Below the pieces are notes generated by a model that was not told the DNA's origin, searched no databases, and worked only from the letters and a program-made list of their open reading frames with translations. A stretch of DNA of 64,000 bases, taken from positions 768,001-832,000 of the forward strand of contig CAVSGI010000010.1 in NCBI GenBank assembly GCA_963727445.1, given 5' to 3'. The stretch comes from an uncultured delta proteobacterium. Its GTDB lineage: Bacteria > Myxococcota_A > Polyangia > Polyangiales > B10-G4. Of the stretch, positions 14,360-46,583 are shown piece by piece. Positions within the stretch are counted from its first letter, which is position 1, and each line of letters begins with the position of its first letter. A program made the translations under genes and the position numbers.

Positions 14360-17300
14360 CTACCTCGTCCCCAGTAGAGTAACGAGCGCGTCGATTTCAT
14401 GCTCGTCCGTCACGTCGTCCCGCGCGCGATTGGCCTCGCCCACCACCCGCGCGGCGAGGATGGCAATCGCGGCGGCCGCCCGTGGGTCTCCCGAATCCAT
14501 GGCGTTCTGGACTGCCTGCACCACCGGATTGCGGCTCGTGAGCTCGTAGCTCTCGTCGTCGCCGCGCCGGAGGATCGCTCGCCGCCGGCTCGGGGTCACC
14601 GACACCGAGACCTTCACCTTCGTCTCGAAGAGGCGAGCGAATACCTCCTGTCCCACGCCCGGCGAAGGCGGTTTCGGTGCCGTCAGCGGTGCGGTGGAAG
14701 CGAGAGTTGGCGTCTCGACCACCTCGTCGAAGCTGACCGCCGGCCACTCGAAGTCGTCCGTGTCGTCGTCGTCCCCTGCGTCCGCGACAATCAGCGCCTT
14801 CGTCACAGGCGCCGGCATCAGCGCGGACCTCGCCTCGGGCGGCCACCGTCGCGCGCGCCAATCGAGGTGCATCAGGATGGCCCGCGCCGCGAGCAATCCA
14901 TCGTCGATGAGCCAGGGATCCTCCGCGGTCGGCCCCCCTTCGTTCGACTCGAAGGTGTCGCGCACCGCCTCCACCTGCGCGGGGCTGACGAACCAGACGA
15001 TGCCCCCCTTCCCCGTGAGCCACCGCTCCACGGTGGCGGGATCGAATCGGCCGCCCCACGCCGAGCGGCCATTCGTGCTCGCCCGGAAGGTCCTCGGCCT
15101 TCACCAGCTTCGCCGCGATCCCCTGAACGATGTGGGCGGCCTTCACCGGATCCCACTCGTTCGCCACGCGCCGCGAGAGGCTGCTGAGCATGCGGGTGTA
15201 GACGACCTTCGCGACCCGCTCCGCCGCGTCGACGTGCGGAAGCCCGTCGACGAAGAGACGCCCTTCGATGGGAAGAGACGCGGATCCTGCCCCGCGCAGG
15301 ACGCGACTTCCCCCGCGATCGACGACCGTCACCGGCTCGGGTGGGACGCCGCCGCTTCGCGCCCACAAGGCGCCGCGCACCGGAATCTCCACACCCGCGC
15401 GCCGCGCATCGGCCACGCTCACGCGCCGCGGCTCGAGGGCGTCGTGCGGGATCTTCACCAGCGAGCTCAGCGCGCGCTCCGAGGCGCGGCGCACCTCACG
15501 CTTCAGCGTTTCGAAAGCGTCGCCCTCCTCCAAGGCGCCCGACCAGGTGCGGTTGGGCTCGACCTGTGGCGCATCCACCACCGCGCGCGTCGGCCACTCG
15601 CACGGGTCCCGATGCTCTCCCAGCGGATGGCGTTCGCGACTCAGCCGCATCCCGCGATGCGCATCGAGACCTGGCCGGAGAGGCGCCACCACACCTTCGA
15701 TCCGGTGCTCGCCCTTGGCCTTCAAGATCTCCCAGGCCATGGCGGCGCTGTCCTCGCCGTATTCGAGGGTCAGGCTCTCCACCGGCCGACGGTTGCGGTT
15801 GCGCCGAGCCTCCGCATCCTGGCGCAGCTCCTCCGTGGCGTCGGTGAGGATCAACAGCTCGCCCAGGAGGTTCGTCGCCTCGTCACCGGAAAGCCGAAAC
15901 GCGTGGCGCTCGGGGTCGAGCGGGACCTCCGCGCACCCGAAGTCTGTCACGTACCACACCACGCCGAAGCGCTCCGACTGCTCGCGAATCGCGTCTTTGG
16001 TGAGCCAGATGCCCTCGGTGGTCTCGAAGAGCGGCAGCGCGTCCCCCTCCTCGTCGCCGGCGAGGACGCGGCCATCGAGCATGGCGCTTCGAATCCGCCG
16101 TTTCTCCTCCGTCGTGAGGAGCGCGACGCCGTCTTCGACGAGCCGTCGAACCAGCAGCGCTGTGAGCTGCTGGAGCCGCTCCGCGAGTGGGGCGTGCCCG
16201 GCGATCTTCGTCGGGTCACGGGGCACGTCGGGCGACTCGAGGGTCGCGACGATCGCTGGAAACACCGACACCGACACCACGTCGAGCGCGCGACCGCCGC
16301 GGCGAATGTAGACGCGGCTCGACCCCGAGTCGCTGAGGCCGATCTCTCCGGGACCGAGCGCCGCGCGGAGTCGGCGGTCTTTGCCGACCAGGGTGCTGAC
16401 GTCGTGCACGTGCGAGGCGTCCTCGACACCATGCAGCGTCGGCTTGGGCACCAGACCCTGGGCGACGCGCCTGCGCGACTGCAGCTGCTCACAGGCCTTG
16501 GTGACGTCGGCGACGTCACAGCCGGTGATGGCGCTGATCAACGCCAGCTGTCGCCTACGCTCCTGCCCTTCGGCGACGCGGAGCACGGGGCGGTCGAGGC
16601 TGTGTGGTGCTTCGCCATCGTCCGGGCCGAGCCACATCCCCACGTAGGTCGCCACGTAGACCTTCGAGCGCCGGAGGGCTGCGCGCGCGCCCACTCGATC
16701 CCCTTGAACCGAATCGAAGAGCGGCGCCTCCCCGAGGGTCTCGAGGGCCTTCGCGATGCGTCGTGCGCCCGGCCCATCTTCCACCGGATGGTCGATCCAC
16801 CAGTCGAGGAGGCGACGGGCGGCGTGGTCGACGCGCAGCGCGTCGGGATCGCGCGCAGCGAGCCCGGCCAACAGCGACGGGACCTGTTCGATCACCATCG
16901 CCTCGATCGCTTCGCGCGCCTTGTCGGAGACCTCGACGAAATCCTCGTCCGCTGCCATCGCGGTCGCCCGAACGGTGGCGGCGACCGGCGGGCCACCAAT
17001 CCAGGTCTTGGAGGAGAAGGACCGGTCCTCGATCAGGATCTCGAGGCTGCTCGACTCCATCGTCAGGCCCACCCGGAGCTTCCGCACGAGCGGCGACGAT
17101 GGCTCGACGTCGACGGCTCGAGCGTCGTCAGCGGAGGGAGGGATTTCGATCTTCGGCCGCTCGCGATGCACCTCGAGGCGCGCCGACCTGAGCGCCTTCT
17201 TGCGGCGCCGCTCGAGCTCCTTGTCGGCGTTCCTCGCCTGCTTGCCGAGCATCGCCGCCACGGCCCGTGCCAGGCGTTCGGGCGCGCGCAGGGGGTGAAA

Positions 17301-20027
17301 GCCATCGAGCTCGAAGTCTGCAGCGCGGTCGGGAGCGACGTAGCGGAGCGTGCCCGGGTGGAGCTTCTCGATCTCGTCGAGGCTGTGCGCGGCCTCGAGC
17401 CCGAGAACGAAAAAGAGCGGCAACGCGCGAAGACTCTGGCGAAGCGCTCTGGGTAGGACGGTCTCGAGCCCGACCTCGCCGAGCCGTTCCAGGAGCATCG
17501 GCACCACCTGCCGCTCGAAGATCTCGTCCGCTACGAAGAGACCCGGTGCGTCGTTGCCCACCAGGTGGGCCGCACACCTGCGCATCAGCATGCTCTCTTC
17601 GACCGAGAAGAGCGCCGGAACGAAGCCGCCCGTGACGCTTTGCCATTGCTCGTCCGGCACCAGCGCAGTCCCCTCGTAGAGAACCCACGCCGGAAAGCGC
17701 GTGTCGATCTCGTTGCCTTTGAAGAGCGTCTGACCGCAGTGACGGATGTCGACGATGGGCACCGTCACCGTCATGCCGATGGCGCCGAAACCCGCGTCGC
17801 GATCGAAGCTCATCGCGGCCCCGGTGACCGTGGCGAGCTCCCGCGCCAGGCTGTCCCCGTCGCGCGCGACCGAGAGCTCGCCGCGGTCGTAGTGTACGAA
17901 GCTCGCCGGCTCCGGCAGGAGCGCACGCAGGTATGCGCGATCGTCGGTACCGCCGGCGATCACCAGCCGCTTCGGCGGCAACCCCGGGCACGCACGCGAC
18001 GCGGCGCTCGCATCGGCGGTGAAGTACGTCCCGTGCTCGGCGCTCTTCGCGATCGTCTCCAGAGAGGCCCATCGCGCTTCGCCGTCGGTCGTCAGCGCCG
18101 GGAACACCTCTGCGCTGCGCAACGGTCCCGGAAAGTCGCGCCGGTCGAAGAGCTGGTGATGAGCGTAGATCGCCCCGCGCAGAGCGGCGCGCACCTCTTT
18201 CGACGCCGCCAGCTTCTTCGCGGAGCGGACCCAACGCTGCCGCGGCTCGCCTTCGGTCGTCGTGTCCCCCGCGAGCCGCGACGCCAGGAGCTCGGCCGCC
18301 CAGATGGCCGCCCCGATCAGCGCGCTGTCGACGGCGGCTGCGCCCTCGTCGTCCCGGAGCGCCGAGAACGTCTCGTTCGGGGTCAACAGCGGTGACCAGA
18401 CCACCGCCTCGAAGGGCACCCGCGACTCGATGCGTCGCTTCGCGAGCAGGCGCCCGTCGTAGAGGTAGCTGACGGTCGCGTGCGCGCCCGACGACGTGAG
18501 GCAGAGCTCGCCTTCGAGGGCGGGCATGGTGAAGAAGTGCGGCGACAGCGCGCTCCCATCCGTGACGCGCTCCGGCAGGTCCGCGAGCGGGATGGAGAGC
18601 AGCTGCCCCTCGGCCTCGCGCACCACGCCTTCGTGAACCGGGTACCGCAGGTATCTCAGGCGCGCGAGGCGGCTCCGCTCTGCAGTGGCGATGCGGGGCG
18701 CGACGTCTTCGAGCTCCGTGTGGGCGAGGAGGATCTCCACCGCATCGCCCGGCCGCACCCAGATCAGGTCGAAGAGCCACTCCGCCAGGCGCTCGTCGAG
18801 GGGCTCCTCGCCGCGATAGACGAAGGCCGAGTGGTGCGCCGCTGCGGCGACCTCCGACAGCGTGCGCGGGTTACCGAACGCATCTCGCAGGAGTGGAAGC
18901 TCGAGGAGCGGAGCGAGTGGACCCGAGACGAGCCCGCCCACGTGCGCGCGAAAATCGGTGACGCCCACCGCGGAAGCGAGGAGGGCGAAGGCGCTCCGTT
19001 CGAGCTCCGCCCGCCCGTGCGCGGACCACTCGAGCGTCGGCTCGGGTCCCAGCTCGCCGGCGATTTTTTCGACCAGCTCCGCGAACACCTCGGAGGCGCG
19101 GGCCTCTGCCTGCGCGATCGGCGCGTCGTCTCGCCGCACTTCGGAGCGCGAGGCGTTGGTCGGCAGGCGGTCCGCGTCGACCGAAACGCGGATCGGAACC
19201 GCCTGGTAGACGGAGATACCGAGCTCGATGGGATGGCGCGCGAGGAGCACCCCGCGCTCGCAGGCCTCGAAGATCGCGGGCCGGGCCCAGTCGGGCCGCG
19301 TGGCGGCGTGCATCAAGGCCATGAACCCGTCGATGTCGGGCCCGAGCGGGATGCGGAGCACGTCGCGGTCGGAGCGCGCTCGCTCGAGCACGCCGTCGCC
19401 GATGGCGATCGGCACCCGCGTGTCGTCGCAGCTCTCGCGGACCAGGCGCAGCTCCGGGGGCTCGCGTCCGGAGACGAAGGTCGTCAACACGCCGAGGTCG
19501 GGGAAGCGACGCAGATGCACCAGCACCCCCTTCGCCGGCGCAGCGAGGGGCTTCGCCACGTCCTCGGCGACCAGGTGGCGCAGCTTGGATGCGCCGGCGA
19601 GCGGATCGTCCTCGTCGACCTCCAGGATCGAAGGCGTGTAGCGCACGCGCTTCGTGCCCGCATCGGCGACGACGTAGATGTCGACGTACCGCGGCCGGAG
19701 GCCAAGGGCGGTGTTGATGGCCGTCGCCATCAGGCGCAGGTGGCGGCGCGCGGGATCGGCCACCGGATTGACGAGCTCGTCCAGGAGCGTCGTCAGGTCG
19801 TCGAGCTGGGGCGCCCTTCCCTCCCAGCTCACGCGCACGTCGTCCGAGTCGCCGGTGACGCGCAGCGAATCGGCGCCGAGGGTCACGCCCGCCCGGAGCA
19901 GCTCCAGGATCCACATCTCGGGCTCCGGCAGCTGATAGTCGCGGAGCTTCATCACCGCGCGCGCGGCATCGACGCGCAGGCTCCCCACACTGACCTGCCG
20001 TCCGGGCGCTGGGCGGCGCGCGGTCAA
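14360..20027 (-). CDS. Giant (~1,890 aa) Hsp90/GHKL-related protein with degenerate ATPase N-box and repeated middle-domain-like units; +1 frameshift at ~15044-15048
   Basis: N-terminal WILELLRAG (N-box-like, no Asn); LPTNASRSEVRRD; long ORF with coding-like composition joined to 14360-15031; TTGA overlap with upstream gene. Confidence 0.65.
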
Positions 20028-23340: not shown

Positions 23341-24558
23341 ATGGCCGCTGCCATGAGTCGACGACGTTCGCCGCTGGTCGCCCTCCTGCCCCGCCGGCTT
23401 CGCCAGCGGATCGAGGGCGCGCGCCACGACCTGCGCATGCTGCGCGGCAGCCTCCGTGGTGAAGCGCCGCCCTACCTCGTGCCTCGGCGCGGGAAGAAGC
23501 CCGAGACGAGCCCACCGCGCCGATCCGTGATCGCGTGGCGACACTTCACCGCGACGGAGGTGATCCGCGAGACGCCGGACGCCGTCACCCTCGTCCTGTC
23601 GCCGTCGGACGGGCGCCCGATCGTCTTCGAGGCCGGGCAGTTCTTGACCGTCGAGGTGGAGCTCGACGGCCAGCCGCTGCGGCGCGCCTATTCGATCTCC
23701 AGCGCGCCGAGCGACGGCCGAATCTCGATCACCGTCAAGCGCATCCGCGACGGCCGCGTCAGCAACCACCTGAACGACCACGCGGTCGTGGGCTCGCGGC
23801 TGAAGGTGCGTGGACCGTCGGGCAGCTTCGGCGCACCAAGGGACGCGCGCGAGCTCGTCATGATCGCGGGCGGGAGCGGGATCACGCCTCTCTTCGCCAT
23901 CGCGCGCGAGGTCCTCGCGGGCGAGCCGGAAGCGCGCGTCACCCTGATCTACGGCAACCGAGCGCCCGAGGACGTCATCTTCGACGCGGCGCTCGCGGCG
24001 ATGGCGGAGAGCCACCGACGTTTCGTCCTCGATCGCGTGTACTCGGATCCGCCCGCGGGCCACGAGGGCCCGCGCGGGCTCCTCGACCGCGCGATGGTCG
24101 AGGCGCGCCTCGATGGCCTCGGCGTCGACCCTGCGCGCGCGGTCTTCCTCGTCTGCGGACCGGAGCCGATGCGCCACGCCACGCGCGCGGCCCTCGAGGC
24201 GCGCGGCGTGTCGGCGGCACGGATCCGCGAAGAGGTCTTCGTGCGACCGGAGCTGCGCGACGATGGCGCGCCGCTGCCGAAGGAGAAGGTCTCGGTGAAG
24301 ATCCTGGGCCAAGGCGACGCCCGCGAGGTGGTCGTCGCCCCAGGCCGGACGCTCCTCGAAGCCGGGCTCTCCGCAGGCGCAGCCCTGCCCTTCTCCTGCA
24401 CCATGGGCGGCTGCGCTGCGTGCAGGGTCCGCCTGACCTCGGGCGAGGTGCGCATGGAGGAGCCGAACTGCCTGACCGCGAGCGAGCGCGAAGCGGGCTA
24501 CATCCTCACCTGCGTCAGCCGGCCCCTCGGCCCCTGCACCGTGAAGGTCGAGTCGTGA
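23341..24558 (+). CDS. FAD/NAD(P)H ferredoxin reductase with C-terminal 2Fe-2S domain (PaaE/KshB-like)
   Basis: RAYSISS, GRVS, AGGSGITP, YGNR, CGP, FSCTMGGCAAC and ILTC. Confidence 0.92.
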   Translation: MAAAMSRRRSPLVALLPRRLRQRIEGARHDLRMLRGSLRGEAPPYLVPRRGKKPETSPPRRSVIAWRHFTATEVIRETPDAVTLVLSPSDGRPIVFEAGQFLTVEVELDGQPLRRAYSISSAPSDGRISITVKRIRDGRVSNHLNDHAVVGSRLKVRGPSGSFGAPRDARELVMIAGGSGITPLFAIAREVLAGEPEARVTLIYGNRAPEDVIFDAALAAMAESHRRFVLDRVYSDPPAGHEGPRGLLDRAMVEARLDGLGVDPARAVFLVCGPEPMRHATRAALEARGVSAARIREEVFVRPELRDDGAPLPKEKVSVKILGQGDAREVVVAPGRTLLEAGLSAGAALPFSCTMGGCAACRVRLTSGEVRMEEPNCLTASEREAGYILTCVSRPLGPCTVKVES

Positions 24559-25286
24559 GCGCGGCAGCGGAGGTTCGGGAGCGCTACCCGTACAAGATGA
24601 AGGACCTCTGCGAGCAGACCGGCCTCGCGCGCCAGGCGATCCACTTCTACATTCGCGAAGGGCTGGTCCCCGCCGGACACAAGACCGGTCACAACATGGC
24701 GTTCTACGGCCCCGAGCATCTCGAGCGCCTGTCGCTGATCAAGCGCCTTCAGCACGAACGCTTCCTGCCGCTCAAGGCGATCAAGGCGATGCTCGACGGC
24801 CGGCAGGGTCACTTCAGCGACGAGCAGCAGCGCTTCCTCGAGGCGGTGCGCGCCGAGCTCGAAGCCATGCGCTCCGCCGGTTCGGAAGCACCGCGACTGG
24901 TGGACCCGGCGCCGCTCATGGAAGCGCACGGCGTCACGGAAGAGGAGCTCGCGCAGCTCGTCGATCTGGGGATCGTCGGCGCGGCCGAAGGCGAGGACGG
25001 GTCCCTCTCGGTCGCGGCCGAGGACGCCTGGGTCTTCGACATCGTCGGCCGCATGCGCGCGGCGGGCTTCACCGAGGAGCGTGGCTTCGACGCCAGCCAC
25101 CTGGCCATCTACGCCGAAGCGGTGGATCGCATCCTCGAACGCGACATCGAGCTCTTGAGCGAAAAGCTCCCGGGCCTGCCCCCCGGCGTCGCGGCGCGCA
25201 TGCTCGAAGCGGGCATGCCGCTGGTCCACGAGTTCCTCGCGCGCCGTCACGCGCGCCGCACCAACGACTATCTCTCGAGCGTCTGA
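24555..25286 (+). CDS. MerR-family transcriptional regulator
   Basis: MKDLCEQTGLARQAIHFYIREGLVP...YGPEHLERL.LIK.LQ..FLPLKAIK; GTGA overlap with reductase. Confidence 0.88.
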   Translation: MSAAAEVRERYPYKMKDLCEQTGLARQAIHFYIREGLVPAGHKTGHNMAFYGPEHLERLSLIKRLQHERFLPLKAIKAMLDGRQGHFSDEQQRFLEAVRAELEAMRSAGSEAPRLVDPAPLMEAHGVTEEELAQLVDLGIVGAAEGEDGSLSVAAEDAWVFDIVGRMRAAGFTEERGFDASHLAIYAEAVDRILERDIELLSEKLPGLPPGVAARMLEAGMPLVHEFLARRHARRTNDYLSSV

Positions 25287-25300
25287 CAGGGAGCACCATC

Positions 25301-26554
<1,254 letters not shown>

Positions 26555-26588
26555 CCACCTCGCGGGGGCTGTCGTACCCTCCCGCTCC

Positions 26589-27131
26589 ATGAAGAAGAAG
26601 ATCGCGTTGGGGGTGGGCGTGGTGCTCCTCCTCCTGATCATGGGCCCGGTCATCGCCGCCGCCATGCGACCGGACGAGTACCGTGTAGAGCGCACCCGCG
26701 TGATGAGCGCGACGCCGAATCTGATCGTCCCCCAGCTCGAGAACCTCGAGAAGTGGACCGAGTGGAACCCGTGGATGGATCTCGATCCGCACGCGCGCAT
26801 CGAATACTCCGATCCGTCGTCGGGCGTCGGCGCCTGGTACACCTGGGAAGGCAACGACGACCTCGGCAAGGGCAAGATGACGATCACCTCGGCCAGCGCC
26901 GAGGAGGTCACCTACGACCTCGAGTTCATCGAGCCCTTCCCCTCCACCGCCGACGTCGGCATCACCCTCGAGGAGCAGGGGGATGGCACGAAGGTCACCT
27001 GGTGGATGGAGGGAAGGAACGACTTCATGGGCAAGCTCTTCGACCTCTTCGTGGGCATGGACTCGATGATTGGCGCGGACTTCGAGCGCGGCCTCGAAAA
27101 GCTCGAGCACGCCGCGACCGACGGCGGATGA
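26589..27131 (+). CDS. SRPBCC (START-like) family protein with N-terminal TM
   Basis: YRVERT, W.EWNPW, GVGAWYTWEGN, G.G.M, TKVTW.M, G.DFE.GL.KL. Confidence 0.88.
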   Translation: MKKKIALGVGVVLLLLIMGPVIAAAMRPDEYRVERTRVMSATPNLIVPQLENLEKWTEWNPWMDLDPHARIEYSDPSSGVGAWYTWEGNDDLGKGKMTITSASAEEVTYDLEFIEPFPSTADVGITLEEQGDGTKVTWWMEGRNDFMGKLFDLFVGMDSMIGADFERGLEKLEHAATDGG

Positions 27132-29715
27132 CCGACCGGCTCCTCATCGTCCACGCGACGCATCTTCTGTCGCGCGGGTATCTGAGCGTCTCCGACGACC
27201 GGCAGACGCCGGAGGGAGATCCCGCCGGCGCGCTCTTCGCCGCGACCAGCGCGCTGCGGCGGGCCCTGGCCTTCAAGGAGCCGGAGATGGCGGTGGCCAT
27301 CTTCGATGCGGACGCCGACACCTCGAGCTGGTCGTCCTCGCTCGCCTCGCAGCAGGAACGCTTCCCGGATTTGCTGCGTGCTCAGGGGATCACCGTGACG
27401 ACGGCCTCCTCGGCCGCCGACGTCGTCGCGTCCTACACGAAAGCCGCCCGCGAAACCGGTCACGACGTCGTCATCGTCGGCAGCGACAAGCGCCTCGCCC
27501 AGCTCGTGGGCCACGGCGTGTGGTGGTACGACGCCTACAAGGACGTTCGCTACACGCCAGAGCTCGTGAAGAAGCGCTTCGAGGTGGGGCCGGCGAACGT
27601 GGCGGAGTGGCTCTCGATGGTGGGCGACGACGACACGCTCCCCGGCGTGAAGGGCCTCGGCAAGAAGGGGGCGACGCAGATCATCGAGGCTTTCGGGTCC
27701 CTCGACGCGGCGATGGAGAGGGCGGACGAGGTCGAAGGCCGCCCGGGCAAAGCGCTCCGCGCATCGCTCGACGACGCGAAGCGCGAGCTCGCGCGCGCCC
27801 GCCTCGATCAGAGCGTCGCCCTCCCCCTCCCACTCGACGCGCTCGCCTTCGAGCCGCCCGAGGCTTCTGCGCTCGGTGCCCTCTTCGCGGAGCTCGGCTT
27901 CTTCCAGCTGCTGGAAGCACGAGAGGGGCGCCTCGACGACGTAGATGTCACCGTCTGCGCGGACGCGGGGTCGCTCGCCGATGCGCTCTCCGCGCTCGAA
28001 GGCGCGCCGGTGTCGATCCACGCGCTCATCGACGGCCCCACGCCCTTCGCCGGGCGCCTCGCCGGGCTCGCGCTCGTGAAGAGCGAAGGCCCGGCGTTCT
28101 ATGTGCCCTTCGCGGGACGTGGCGCGGTGTTCGACGACGTGCCCGAAGCACTCGCCACGTTCCTGGCCGACCCCGCGCGCCCGAAGGTGGGGCACGACAT
28201 CAAGCGCGCAGTCGTGGCCTTCGCGCGGCGCGGCGCCGCCGTGACGGGCATCTCTGGCGACGCGGGCTTCGCGTCACACCTCCACCAGCCCAGCAACTGG
28301 GCCCCGCACGATTCTCGACATCCTGGCCAAGCAGGTCCTTCACCGCCCGCTGGTCGAGGAAGAGACGGTGCGCGGCGTCGGCCGCTCCCAGAAGCCGTGG
28401 GCCGAGCTCGAGACGGAGGTCGCGGCCGCCTACGCCGCGCACCTCGCGCGGGCGGCGGACGAGGTGTGGCGAGAGCTCGCTCCGACGACCGACGAGGCGC
28501 TGTTGGCCGAGTACCAGGCCCTTCGTGAGACTTGCGAACGCATGGAGCGGTCGGGTATCGCAGTGGACGGCGCGGACCTCGCCACCGCAGGGGACGACTT
28601 CGACCGGATCCGCGAAGAGCTCGAGAAAGAGATCTACGCGCTCGCCGACAAGACCTTCAACCTCGGCTCCACCAAGCAGCTCGGCTCGGTGCTCTACGAG
28701 GACCTCGGGCTGCCGATCGTGAAGCGCACCAAGACCGGCTGGAGCACGGCGACCGAAGCGCTCGAGCGCATCGAGAACGCGCACCCCATCGTGCCGCTGG
28801 TGATTCGCTGGCGCACCCTCCGGCGGCTGAAGGACACCTGGGTCACGGCGCTGATGGCGAGCATCGCGGACGACGGGCGCGTACACTCGATGTTTCATCC
28901 GGCGCGTTCTTTCAGCGGACGCCTGGTCAACTCGGAGCCGGACCTGGGCCGCGTGCCCGGCGCCACGCCCGAGATGGCGCGGAATCCGCCACGCCTTCGT
29001 CGCGCCGCCGGGGCGCGTCCTGCTCTCAGTGGACTACGAGCAGCTCGGTCTCTTCGTGCTGGCGCATCTGACGAAGGACCCGGCGCTGGTCGAGCCACTC
29101 GCAAACGAAGACGACCTGCACACGCTCACGGCGGCCGCCGTCCTCGACCTCGATCCGGCGAAGGTGGGCAAGAAGGAGCGCCAGATCGGCAAGGTCGTGA
29201 ACTTCGCCACCTTCGCCGGCCAGGGCGCGAGCGCGCTGGCGCTCCAGCTCGGCGTCGACGCCGCTGAGGCGAAGGAGATCATCGCCCGTTTCGATCGGCG
29301 CTATGCGGTGGTGCGGGCGTTCCAGGACGAACAGCTCGCGCTGGTGCAGAAGCGCGGCTTCATCGAGACGGTCGCCGGGAGGCGCTGGCCCATCGGAGGT
29401 CTCACTTCGAAAGACCAGCAGGCGCGCGCCTACGCGGAGCGTCTCGCCCGGCGCGCCACCCACGAAGGCTCGGTGGCGGACGTGTCCCGCCGCGGCCTCC
29501 TGCATGCAGACCAGGCGCTTCGCGCCCGCGGTCTTCGCGCCGAGCCTCTGCTGCAGGTGCACGACGAGGTGCTCTTCGAGGTGGACGGGGATCAGCTCGA
29601 GGAGGCCGCCGAAACCGCGGCAGATGCGATGCGAAAGGCCTTCGCGCTCGAAGTCCCCTTGCGGGTGGGGAAGAAGGCGGGACCGAACTGGGCGGAGCTG
29701 CGACCTCTCGGGTAG
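27128..29715 (+). CDS. Divergent DNA polymerase I-like protein; +1 frameshifts at ~28310-28314 and ~28982-28986
   Basis: PGVKGLGKKGA (H3TH), FNLGSTKQL..VLY, KTGWST, SGRL, IRHAFVAP..SVDYEQLGL..LAHL (motif A), RQIGKVVNF (motif B), LQVHDE (motif C); spread over three frames; ATGA overlap with SRPBCC gene. Confidence 0.88.
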
Positions 29716-29724
29716 AGTTCGGCC

Positions 29725-30375
29725 ATGCGCACGTTCGTCTCCCTCGCACTGGCGCTCGCCGCCCTCTCGACCGCCGCCTCAGCCCAGGCACAGAGCGGAG
29801 AAGACCGCCCTCCCTTTCGGGACGGTGTTCGCGTCGGAGGCGGCATGGTGACGGGCTTCGCCGGACAGCTCCACCTCGACTACGAAAACCTGCCCGACAC
29901 GGACGACGATCTCCTCGCCACGGTCGGCTTCGACGTCTTCGCCGAGTACGCGTTCATGCGCTACCTGGCGCTCGGTGCGCGGTCGAGCCTCGTCTGGTGG
30001 AACGCCGAGACCTTCGACAACGCGGGGAACGGACGCAGCTTCCTGTGGACGCTCGACATCCAACCGAAGGTTCGCTTCCCCTTCGCCCTCGCGGATTTCG
30101 GGGCGGAGGTGTTCCTCGCACTCCCGCTCGGCCTCACCGTCAGCGTGCCCAATCGGGACATCCTGGGCGATCCGAACGTAGCGCCCGGTTTCAATCTCGC
30201 GATCATGGGCGGGTTCGCGCTGTGGTTCACCGAGCAGATCGGCGCCTACACCCAGGTCGGCTGGCAATGGCATTGGGCCCGCCACCAGTTCACCAGCGGT
30301 CTGGCGTCCGGGGTCGACGTCAACGCGCGCATCAGCCAGCTCCGCTGGACCTTCGGCCTGACCGTCGCCCTCTGA
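29725..30375 (+). CDS. Outer-membrane beta-barrel protein
   Basis: Signal peptide AQA; about 8 amphipathic beta-strands; terminal strand LRWTFGLTVAL. Confidence 0.75.
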   Translation: MRTFVSLALALAALSTAASAQAQSGEDRPPFRDGVRVGGGMVTGFAGQLHLDYENLPDTDDDLLATVGFDVFAEYAFMRYLALGARSSLVWWNAETFDNAGNGRSFLWTLDIQPKVRFPFALADFGAEVFLALPLGLTVSVPNRDILGDPNVAPGFNLAIMGGFALWFTEQIGAYTQVGWQWHWARHQFTSGLASGVDVNARISQLRWTFGLTVAL

Positions 30376-44650: not shown

Positions 44651-46583
44651 TCAACCCGCTGCGATCGAGATGCGCTGGACCACCTCGGAGGGTTTCGGCG
44701 CAGCCGAGGGGCGCAGTTCGGGTGGGGCGAGCGCCGCGGGTTGAGGCCGCGCGAGATAGAAGCCCTGGACGCGGTCACAGATCGGCGGGGCCTCGGTGGT
44801 GTGGTCGAGCGCCAGGAGAAAGGCGAGCTGCTCCGCGGTCTCGATTCCCTCGGCCACCACCTCGATTCCCAGGGCGTGGGCCATGGTGATCACCGCAGTG
44901 ACAATCGCCGCATTGCTTCGGTCGTCGACCATGTCTTTGATGAAGGATCTGTCGATCTTGAGGGTGTGGACGTGCAGGCTTCGGAGCCGGTTGAGGCTCG
45001 AGTATCCCGAGCCGAAATCGTCGATGACGATTCGCACCCCCAGCTCGACGAGGCGGTCGAGAACCTGCTTTGCGAGCTCGAAGTTCTCGAACGCCACGCT
45101 CTCCGTCAGCTCGATCTCCACGGTCTCGGCCGCGATGCCCGAGTCTTCGATCGCCGTCCGCACGGTCTCGAAGAAGTCGACGTCCCGGAGCTGTCGCACC
45201 GAGACGTTGACCGCGATTGAAAGATCGGGGCGCCCATTGTTCTGCCAGGCGGCCACCTGTTGGAAAGCGGTCCTCATGACCCAGGTTCCGAGCGGGACGA
45301 TGAGCCCGGAGCGCTCCGCTTCTGGGATGAACTCAGCGGGCGAGATCATGCCGCGCTCGGGATGCATCCAGCGGACGAGCGCCTCCACCCCGCACACCTG
45401 GCGGGTTCGGGGATCCACGAGCGGCTGGTAGTGGAGCGCGAGCTCGCCCTCCGCGATCGCTCGGGCGAGCTCCTCCCGCAGCGCGGCGCGCCGAACCGAG
45501 GAGGTGAGCATGTCGTCGGAGAAGTAGCTGTACCGAGCTCCGCCAGTCGCCTTGGAAGCGTACATCGCCAGATCCGCACACCTGAGGAGCGCCTCCGCGT
45601 CCGACCCATCGTCGGGACATACGGCGATGCCGATGCTGGGCGGGCAGTCGATTCTCGTGTCCGCGCAGACTCAACGGTGCCCCACACTCCTGCATCACTC
45701 GGAGCGCGACGCTCTCGATGTCGTCGATGGACTCCAGGTCGTCGAACACCACGACGAACTCGTCGCCACCCATCCGAGCGACCGTGTCACACCCGCGCAC
45801 TGCGCGGCGCAGTCGCTCGGCCACGATACGAAGGAGCTCGTCGCCGGCGGGGTGGCCGTACGAATCGTTGACGCCTTTGAAGTTGTCGAGATCCAGGAGC
45901 AGGAGCGCGGCGCGACGCCCGTAACGGCGGGAGCGAGCCACGGCGGTCGCGATCCGATCGTTCAACAAGACCCGGTTCGGGAGGTTCGTCAACGCGTCGT
46001 GAGTGGCCAGATGCTCGAGCTCACGGGTGCGGTCACGAACGTTCTGCTCGAGCACCGCCACCTGCCCCTCGATCTGCCGTGCGAGCAGCCACTTGTGGCC
46101 GAGGGAGTGCGCCAGCTGCACTACCTCGATGGAATCGAAGGGCTTCTTGAGCACCAGGAACCGGTCGCAAGAGCCCAGAGTCTGGGTCATTTCGCTCCAC
46201 GAGTGGTCACTGTGGGCGGTGCAGATCACGACCTGGAGGTTTGGATCGACCTCCCACATCCGAGCGACGGTGCTCACGCCGTCGAGCCCGGGCGGCATGC
46301 GAACGTCCACGAAGGCTACCGCGTAGGGGTCCCCAGCGGTCGCCGCACGCGCCACCTTCTCGATGCCCTCCAGGCCCTGGTAGGCGGAGTCGATTCGAAG
46401 CGGGAGCCGATCCTCCCCTGGCGTGCTCCTCGTCTCATCGGCGAAGAGCTCGGCTTCGAGGTCCGCGAGCTCGCTGTGACTGGGGCGCACGCACGAGAGG
46501 ACCTTTTCGAAGTCGTCGTGAATCGCCGGATTGTCGTCGACGATCAGGACGCGGACGGAGGGTCGTGTGTCTCCTGGACTCAT
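44651..46583 (-). CDS. REC-GGDEF-EAL c-di-GMP enzyme; +1 frameshift at ~45650-45654
   Basis: LIVDD, FVDVRMPPG, KPF; RMGGDEF; VEALVRW, ELTES, DDFGSGYSSL, EGIET, QGF. Confidence 0.9.

Follow-up and report, generated by a model that had tools for sequence, protein, structure and literature searches.

Based on the analysis of a 64,000-nucleotide stretch of DNA (the window; positions 768,001 to 832,000 of contig CAVSGI010000010.1, here C10) from an uncultured myxobacterium of the order Polyangiales, we identified a DNA polymerase I (Pol I)-like gene in which two residues held to be universal in the active site of family A polymerases are replaced. Our preferred reading, to which we assign a probability of about 0.45, is that the gene is functional and encodes a paralogue of Pol I specific to Myxococcota, and that the product would be a nuclease-dead auxiliary polymerase that fills gaps with relaxed sugar selectivity and lower fidelity. 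The window has a G+C content of 69% and belongs to an assembly of 9.47 Mb in 27 contigs with a completeness of 85.6%. A previous sequence-only reading had pointed to positions 28982 to 29715, and the feature it described there is real, but this range covers only the last third of the gene (27128 to 29715).

Residue equivalences were taken from a HMMER alignment of P0001, the intact orthologue from genome G024 (849 amino acids; its palm and fingers part is 76% identical to that of the window), to Taq polymerase (PDB 1bgx/1tau), which was ungapped over Taq 562-769. Compared to Taq, P0001 carried the changes E615 to G, R617 to Y, L670 to F, Y671 to A, N750 to R, Q754 to E, N580 to D, Q582 to G and N583 to R, and retained D610, R573, H639, R659, K663, F667, R746, H784, D785 and E786. 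At the sites of the steric-gate Glu (Taq E615, E. coli E710) and its partner Tyr (Taq Y671, E. coli Y766) that characterize polA, both the window and all 120 clade proteins described below have Gly and Ala, and the catalytic carboxylates of motifs A and C (D610, D785 and E786) are present in each of them. T7 RNA polymerase likewise has Gly at the D+5 position of motif A. All motifs quoted by the sequence-only reading were found at the codons that it gave, and the Gly codon GGT is indeed two base changes away from GAA or GAG. The Gly codon and the DLGRVP motif were shown independently by a 151-nt short-read contig of the public sequencing run X1, which spans positions 28909-29060 and matches the window except for one letter omitted at 28983. 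As the same residues were found in 120 out of the 120 nearest homologues, the pattern is not a matter of chance. The substitutions form charge-neutral pairs (E to G with R to Y/H/F, N to R with Q to E, and N to D with N to R), and the site looks re-optimised rather than decayed. Part of the rewiring, namely Asn to Asp, Asn to Arg and the Gly to Ala change in NFAT, is shared by a neighbouring and otherwise canonical type of PolA, which we refer to as the PDLQRTP type.

A homologue search with P0001 gave 3830 proteins at E ≤ 0.001 among the 8000 candidates scored, of which the best 120 were taken as ranked and each aligned to P0001. These were 65-74% identical, mostly 840-900 amino acids long, and originated from Polyangiaceae, Kofleriaceae, Sandaracinaceae and metagenome-assembled genomes of Myxococcales. 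Where a name was given, they were annotated as 'DNA polymerase', 'DNA polymerase I', 'polymerase' or 'hypothetical protein'. Without exception they had Gly at E615, Ala at Y671, Phe at L670, Arg at N750, Glu at Q754, Asp at N580 and Arg at N583, and retained D610, D785, E786, R659, K663, F667, H639 and R746. The remaining sites varied: Q582 (G 110, S 6, A 2, D 1, E 1), R617 (Y 63, H 43, F 13, C 1), R573 (R 107, H 12, Q 1) and H784, which is P0001 position 798 (H 73, L 40, V 5, A 2; the orthologue of genome G013 reads VDE). The set of 108 clade sequences used for some counts below was defined by two of these residues, which makes its count circular where these two are concerned. The representatives at 50% identity included only about a dozen clade members, one of which (P0125) had Asn instead of Ala, and polymerases with the canonical gate came next.

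A tree of the polymerase domain (LG+G4) was built from 78 rows, consisting of 18 clade sequences (6 chosen and 12 random), all 10 sequences of the PDLQRTP type, 5 unclassified ones and 45 taken at random from 118 canonical PolAs. The clade was monophyletic, forming one side of a branch with a Shimodaira-Hasegawa-like approximate likelihood ratio test (SH-aLRT) value of 100 and a stem of about 0.57 changes per site, and its nearest neighbours were the 'PDLQRTP / DWSQIELR / NFATIYG' polymerases. The proposal that DYxQLG, NFATFAG and HEG mark a conserved clade was thus borne out by the homologue search, the tree and the 120-protein count. Both polymerase pieces of the window scored above the gathering cut-off of PF00476 (34.3 bits; scores in Table 1), which places the protein in family A. 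P0001 stayed below both polA equivalog cut-offs, with 562.4 vs 720 and 471.9 vs 600 (NCBIfam NF004397, TIGR00593), and the orthologues reached 312-336 bits against PF00476, compared to 497-528 for the canonical copies of the same genomes. The clade belongs to family A and descends from Pol I, but it is not a polA equivalog. No description of it was found in the literature searched, which covered journals other than subscription journals, and the main text of the 2023 reclassification of family A (PMC10201439) does not contain 'Myxococc' or 'Deltaproteobacteria'.

The domain order in the gene according to Pfam (PF02739, PF01367, PF22619, PF00476) is the order of Pol I, with a 5'-3' exonuclease (FEN), an exo(-like) and a polymerase domain, although the score of frame 1 against the RNase H-like exo domain PF22619 (26.7 bits) was just below the cut-off of 27 bits. 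The structure modelled as a Pol I fold: AlphaFold2 with a 90-sequence alignment gave a mean predicted local distance difference test (pLDDT) value of 95.1 and a predicted template modelling (pTM) score of 0.89, with all three domains folded and no disordered segment, and the best Foldseek matches were full-length M. smegmatis Pol1, Taq, and the Bst and Klenow fragments (target TM-scores 0.83-0.90). The clade keeps 78 of the 139 columns that are at least 90% invariant in the 118 canonical PolAs, and its polymerase domain is collinear with that of canonical Pol I with small indels only.

In the window the FEN motifs read VHA for VDG, AADV for EADD and DKR for DKD, with the catalytic carboxylates largely replaced. 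Throughout the clade the first catalytic Asp is H, S or L, EADD is unconserved, Asp117 is Arg in 108 out of 108 sequences, and a 13-residue segment of the helical arch with invariant Arg, Tyr, Lys and Arg is deleted; the helix-hairpin-helix glycines and two Asp are still there. An active 5' nuclease site was not found. Similarly, the Exo I motif DxE[TS] was present in none of the 108 clade sequences and none of the 10 sequences of the neighbouring type, and in 39 of the 118 canonical ones. Both nuclease sites are predicted to be dead in the clade.

Among the 40 nearest relatives, matches of 69-76% identity were detected in four genomes (G024, G022, G013 and, partially, G027), and a genome of the same genus (G001, 86% complete) had no match to the paralogue. 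In the class sample the paralogue was present in 41 out of 401 genomes at E ≤ 1e-60, including the host genome (G000) and the unpublished G360, or in 40 out of 400 without the latter, and 37 of the 67 genomes of one family (f38) in this sample carried it. In the phylum sample 12 out of 401 genomes were positive, including three families outside the class with 59-67% identity. The occurrence of the clade in Myxococcota is patchy. A mobile origin was rejected, as tblastn matches to phages (3546 records matched) and plasmids (117) were all below 60% identity, with the best listed at about 28-31%. A relation to the defence-associated PolAs was rejected as well: the match to PADLOC RTasPolA (DRT) of 38 bits (E 2.3e-10) reflects a generic family A likeness, and conserved neighbours are lacking.

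A separate canonical polA, as anticipated by the sequence-only reading, was found in the same genome on contig C6, with the motifs DYSQIELR, NYAVIYG, NTPIQG and HDE. At least one canonical-scoring PolA was also present in G022, G013, G024 and all five further carriers tested, and the paralogue is therefore not the sole or principal Pol I of these genomes. G022 has three family A polymerases, namely one of the PDLQRTP type, a PNLQNIP-type PolA and the paralogue without the gate. The ratio of non-synonymous to synonymous substitution rates (dN/dS, Nei-Gojobori) was below 1 in all pieces of the gene. Between the window and three orthologues it amounted to 0.17-0.36 for the palm and fingers, 0.22-0.45 for the middle part and 0.33-0.58 for the N-terminal part, and among the three orthologues to 0.32-0.54.

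The gene is spread over three frames, and the two frameshifts noted previously do exist, with one base too many at 28312/28313 and at 28983/28984; a codon-position G+C model placed the frame switches at 28311/28312 and 28984/28985. The letter omitted in the run X1 contig is located at the second of these sites. The depth of this contig was only 2, and run X1 may be the source sample; the site of the first frameshift and most of the gene were outside its read coverage. Runs X2 and X3 gave only short pieces of other organisms with less than 95% identity. Elsewhere in the assembly the canonical polA (C6:701132-705256, L001) was also frame-broken, as were rpoB (C12:245196-246889), of which the Rpb2_6 domain extends over at least three frames within 1.7 kb, and a dnaE-like gene (C8:193772-194580) with three frames within 0.8 kb; gyrA/parC were whole. 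Widespread single-base indel errors in the assembly fit these broken genes and the completeness of 85.6%. Within the window, a GGDEF-EAL gene likewise seems to lose its frame near 45686. Neither a stop codon nor any further lesion was found in the three frames of the Pol I-like gene, which retain all clade hallmarks. None of the carriers in the class sample had internal stops, and their open frames were 686-1998 amino acids long, except for two short fragments (166 and 201 amino acids) and the window itself. As the X1 contig lacks the extra base, essential genes are frame-broken too and the orthologues are intact, both frameshifts are most likely assembly indels and the gene is most likely not decayed.

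A second copy of the locus was observed on contig C14 (3160-6976, minus strand). It matches window positions 26481-30332, a 3.85-kb segment that is 91.4% identical with 59 gap positions, and includes the Pol I paralogue together with a portion of the SRPBCC gene and the larger part of the outer membrane protein (OMP) gene. The hallmarks DYGQLGL, NFATFAG, RRATHEG and HDE were recognized in it together with many frame changes. The copy lies within ~10 kb of the start of the contig, a region with frame switches at intervals of 100-400 nt, flanks included. It may stem from a recent duplication, from strain variation or from poor polishing of the contig end.

Table 1. Coordinates of the Pol I-like gene and its parts in the window.
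Feature	Position	Strand	Evidence or remark
Whole Pol I-like gene	27128..29715	+	~861 codons plus stop, spread over three frames; intact orthologues
Frame 1: degenerate 5'-3' exonuclease (FEN) domain and start of exo-like domain	27128..28312	+	Weak matches to the two Pfam 5'-3' exonuclease domains, 55 and 54.6 bits; clade-wide column analysis
Frameshift 1: one surplus T (TT run)	28312..28313	+	Orthologue comparison, APHD/LDILAKQ vs APHDLTLLAKH
Frame 2: remainder of exo-like domain, thumb and N-terminal polymerase domain, including SGRLVNSEPDLGRVP	28314..28982	+	PF00476 positions 5-137, 110.7 bits
DLGRVP replacing NLQNIP (Taq N580 to D, Q582 to G, N583 to R)	28941..28958	+	Sequence, Taq alignment, 120-protein count
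Frameshift 2: one surplus A (AA run)	28983..28984	+	Orthologue comparison; run X1 short-read contig without one letter at 28983
Frame 3: palm and fingers, motifs A, B and C, stop TAG 29713-29715	28984..29715	+	PF00476 positions 141-381, 211.9 bits
Motif A DYEQLG, within VDYEQLGLFVLAHL	29032..29049	+	Catalytic Asp GAC 29032-29034 retained; Gly GGT 29047-29049 at the steric-gate Glu
Motif B RQIGKVVNFATFAG	29179..29220	+	R659, K663 and F667 retained; Phe at L670; Ala GCC 29215-29217 at Y671/Y766
RLARRATHEG	29440..29469	+	R746 retained; N750 to Arg (29452-54); Q754 to Glu (29464-66)
Motif C HDE	29560..29568	+	Asp and Glu invariant across the clade, His variable

According to our preferred reading it is the assembly indels alone that would make the locus look broken, and the three-domain body of Pol I would be kept. 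The polymerase site appears to keep what is needed for Mg2+ binding, nucleoside triphosphate binding and phosphodiester formation. Since the metal- and triphosphate-holding residues are retained and the palm and fingers are the most constrained part, the protein would be a working nucleotidyl transferase. The rebuilt parts would be the floor of the pocket for the nascent base pair and the minor-groove sensors, where Glu615 to Gly goes with Arg617 to Tyr/His/Phe, Tyr671 to Ala with Leu670 to Phe, Asn750 to Arg with Gln754 to Glu, and Asn580 to Asp with Asn583 to Arg, next to Gln582 to Gly. Such an enzyme is predicted to fill gaps in a primer- and template-dependent way, without flap cutting or proofreading. 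It would discriminate poorly against a 2'-OH, so that ribonucleoside triphosphates (rNTPs) or mixed pools would be accepted, and its copying fidelity would be below that of the canonical Pol I that the genome encodes at another locus.

The acceptance of rNTPs and the low fidelity, which were also put forward by the sequence-only reading, are inferred from engineered E615G/E710A and Y766A enzymes. The Glu is described as the steric gate of family A (PMC13492167), and E615G is carried by the Taq variants SFM19 and AA40, which were selected to use 2'-modified NTPs (PMC9738464). The description 'universally conserved within A-family polymerases' has been used for E710 and Y766, and the variants E710A and Y766A were reported to be mutators in which closing on correct deoxynucleoside triphosphates (dNTPs) is weakened (PMC3715850). 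By analogy with the mycobacterial gate-less Y-family polymerases, a use in repair synthesis under dNTP scarcity, in stationary or resting cells, is plausible. Template-independent synthesis had been suggested in addition, and nothing in our analysis is in favour of it. We consider it unlikely that the descendant of Pol I has gone further and turned into a primer-dependent polymerase that prefers or freely uses ribonucleotides, or acts on RNA/DNA hybrid duplexes. If true, it would be a natural counterpart of the laboratory-evolved E615G 'DNA polymerase turned RNA polymerase', and family A would have taken an independent route towards RNA synthesis in addition to that of the single-subunit RNA polymerases of phages and mitochondria.

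Several observations weigh against the preferred reading. With the invariant Phe at L670 and the aromatic residue or His at R617, the pocket could be filled again and a steric gate re-established. In Klenow a single E710A or Y766A strongly weakens dNTP binding (PMC3715850), and an enzyme with both Gly and Ala could simply be slow. The Gln754 to Glu change puts a negative charge at the site where the template minor groove is read. The dN/dS values are rough, since dS was 0.7-1.2 and thus near saturation, and the status of the first frameshift (28312/13), outside read coverage, was judged by analogy with the second site and from the general state of the assembly. In the gene context of 24 orthologous loci, studied over 4 kb per side where the contig allowed, no conserved neighbours and no repair-gene context were found. 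The commonest neighbour family occurred in 8 loci and was a Ser/Thr kinase in the member scanned; the next ones occurred in 5 closely related loci (zinc alcohol dehydrogenase, dienelactone hydrolase and a histidine-kinase ATPase-domain protein). The genes next to the paralogue in the window (MerR, AurF-like, SRPBCC and OMP barrel) recurred only partly, namely as the SRPBCC and OMP portions of the C14 copy. A LexA-like box was found in 0 of the 24 upstream regions of 300 nt with three consensus patterns, and no 9-mer was common to more than 7 of the 24 upstream regions. These results lend no independent support to the proposed physiological role.

The same residues can be read in other ways. 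The protein could be an ordinary, dNTP-specific auxiliary DNA polymerase that differs from Pol I mainly by the loss of its nucleases, and in which other residues keep sugar selection and base-pair checking: Phe at L670 and Tyr/His/Phe at R617 would rebuild the pocket, and the Arg/Glu and Asp/Arg pairs would stand in for the Asn/Gln contacts. We regard this as a serious but rather unlikely alternative. The invariant charge-neutral pairs are what a compensated, optimised site would show, the sugar-positioning F667 is retained in 120 out of 120 proteins, and an aromatic gate is used by other polymerase families (PMC13492167). However, Gly and Ala together empty both positions that line the 2' side, E615G alone opens Taq to 2'-modified NTPs (PMC9738464), and the residue at 670, which comes before 671 on the O helix, would be expected to face another way. 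With a clearly smaller chance of being correct, the protein could be a dedicated ribonucleotide-polymerising or hybrid-duplex enzyme, which would either synthesise RNA from a primer or act in repair as a reverse-transcribing polymerase, and in which the longer Arg sensors would fit an A-form RNA/DNA duplex. The joint loss of the gate Glu and Tyr in 120 out of 120 proteins, the replacement of both minor-groove Asn/Gln sensors by Arg-containing pairs and the disappearance of both proofreading and flap cleavage are consistent with it, whereas no residue that could positively select a 2'-OH was identified, Ala stands in place of the Tyr that reads the 2'-OH in T7 RNA polymerase, and the 24 loci provided no evidence from context.

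A protein that has kept the shape of Pol I without its catalysis, and that has a structural or regulatory role on DNA at nicks and gaps, is improbable. Such a pseudo-enzyme would be in line with the two dead nuclease sites, the loss of two residues considered universal among active enzymes of family A (PMC3715850), the variable H784 and the scores under the polA equivalog cut-offs. What speaks against it is that none of the 120 proteins deviates at the three metal-binding carboxylates or at R659, K663 and H639, which bind the triphosphate, whereas pseudo-enzymes usually lose precisely these residues, and that constraint on the gene is strongest in the palm and fingers (dN/dS 0.17-0.36). Less probable still is a real pseudogene in this strain, with both frameshifts present in the cell. 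Two frameshifts in 2.6 kb, a second and more broken copy with 91% identity on C14 and a first frameshift site without read coverage would agree with decay, but the X1 contig is without the extra base at 28983, rpoB, the canonical polA and the dnaE-like gene are frame-broken too, and the three frames show no stop or other lesion with the clade hallmarks all retained. The more broken copy itself is located in a contig end with frequent frame switches in the flanks as well.

Some further features of the window were noted. The start codon of the Pol I-like gene (ATG at 27128) and the TGA stop of the SRPBCC gene in front of it overlap in the sequence ATGA. The SRPBCC gene is the last of a same-strand run (23371-27131, plus strand) of a ferredoxin-reductase-like gene, a MerR regulator, a gene for a di-iron protein resembling AurF and the ribonucleotide reductase small chain (weak matches) and SRPBCC (Polyketide_cyc2), an arrangement that is not common to the 23 orthologous loci of other genomes. 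At 15048-19997 (minus strand) a 1650-residue open frame with a coding-like codon bias was without a Pfam match at E ≤ 1e-4. A response-regulator/GGDEF/EAL gene (44663-46556, minus strand) appears frame-broken near 45686; its GGDEF match ends at profile position 108 of 161 and EAL is in another frame.

In the clade both supposedly universal fidelity residues are replaced throughout, with the catalytic machinery under purifying selection. It comprises more than 120 sequence clusters at 90% identity and occurs in roughly one in ten of the class genomes sampled, and genome annotation lumps such functionally divergent paralogues together as 'DNA polymerase'. Judging from its residues, the paralogue of this soil myxobacterium may be a natural polymerase that tolerates ribonucleotides. 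If active, it would be a natural test of a family A active site that works without a gate, a possible rNTP-using repair route in soil bacteria with large genomes, and a scaffold for polymerases that accept 2'-modified nucleotides.

Canonical Pol I (polA; Taq, Klenow, Bst and M. smegmatis Pol1) has in common with the paralogue the FEN, exo-like and polymerase order, the fold, and D610/D785/E786, R659, K663, F667, H639 and R746. The paralogue differs from it by the Gly gate, the Ala at Y671/Y766, the replaced minor-groove sensors, the loss of the FEN site and arch and the scores below the cut-offs, and it is additional to a canonical polA in every carrier tested. The PDLQRTP / DWSQIELR / NFATIYG type (for example G022:C17, which is L022, G035:C54, which is L023, and P0128-P0140 from the phylum sample) shares Asp580, Arg583 and Ala668 (NFAT) with the clade, but keeps Glu615, Arg617, Tyr671, Asn750, Gln754 and all FEN carboxylates, and it passes the polA equivalog cut-offs (996.5 and 897.2 bits for P0131).

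The laboratory-evolved Taq/Stoffel variants SFM19 (I614E, E615G) and AA40 (E602V, A608V, I614M, E615G) have the same Glu to Gly change next to a changed I614, which is Leu in the window, and are reported to accept 2'-modified nucleotides and ribonucleotides (PMC9738464). These enzymes are engineered and keep Y671, N750 and Q754, whereas the change in the clade is natural and ancient and is coupled to at least six further invariant substitutions. The mycobacterial DinB2 and MsDpo4, naturally rNTP-proficient repair polymerases of the Y family, are similarly described as a natural gate-less clade of paralogues beside gate-bearing ones (PMC4176160, PMC6846668). They belong to another polymerase family with another fold, and the analogy is functional only. 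Recently, in 2023, family A was sorted into 19 clusters, which include canonical Pol I and the auxiliary APEX and CHEAP (PMC10201439). As described there by Czernecki et al., APEX and CHEAP resemble the present clade in being second chromosomal PolAs that do not replace Pol I, and the 3'-5' exonuclease of APEX is dead (PMC10201439). However, APEX is actinobacterial, and the CHEAPs are essentially proteobacterial, with some from archaeal Methanomicrobia, and have all exonuclease and polymerase motifs conserved (PMC10201439), whereas the clade described here groups with Pol I itself.

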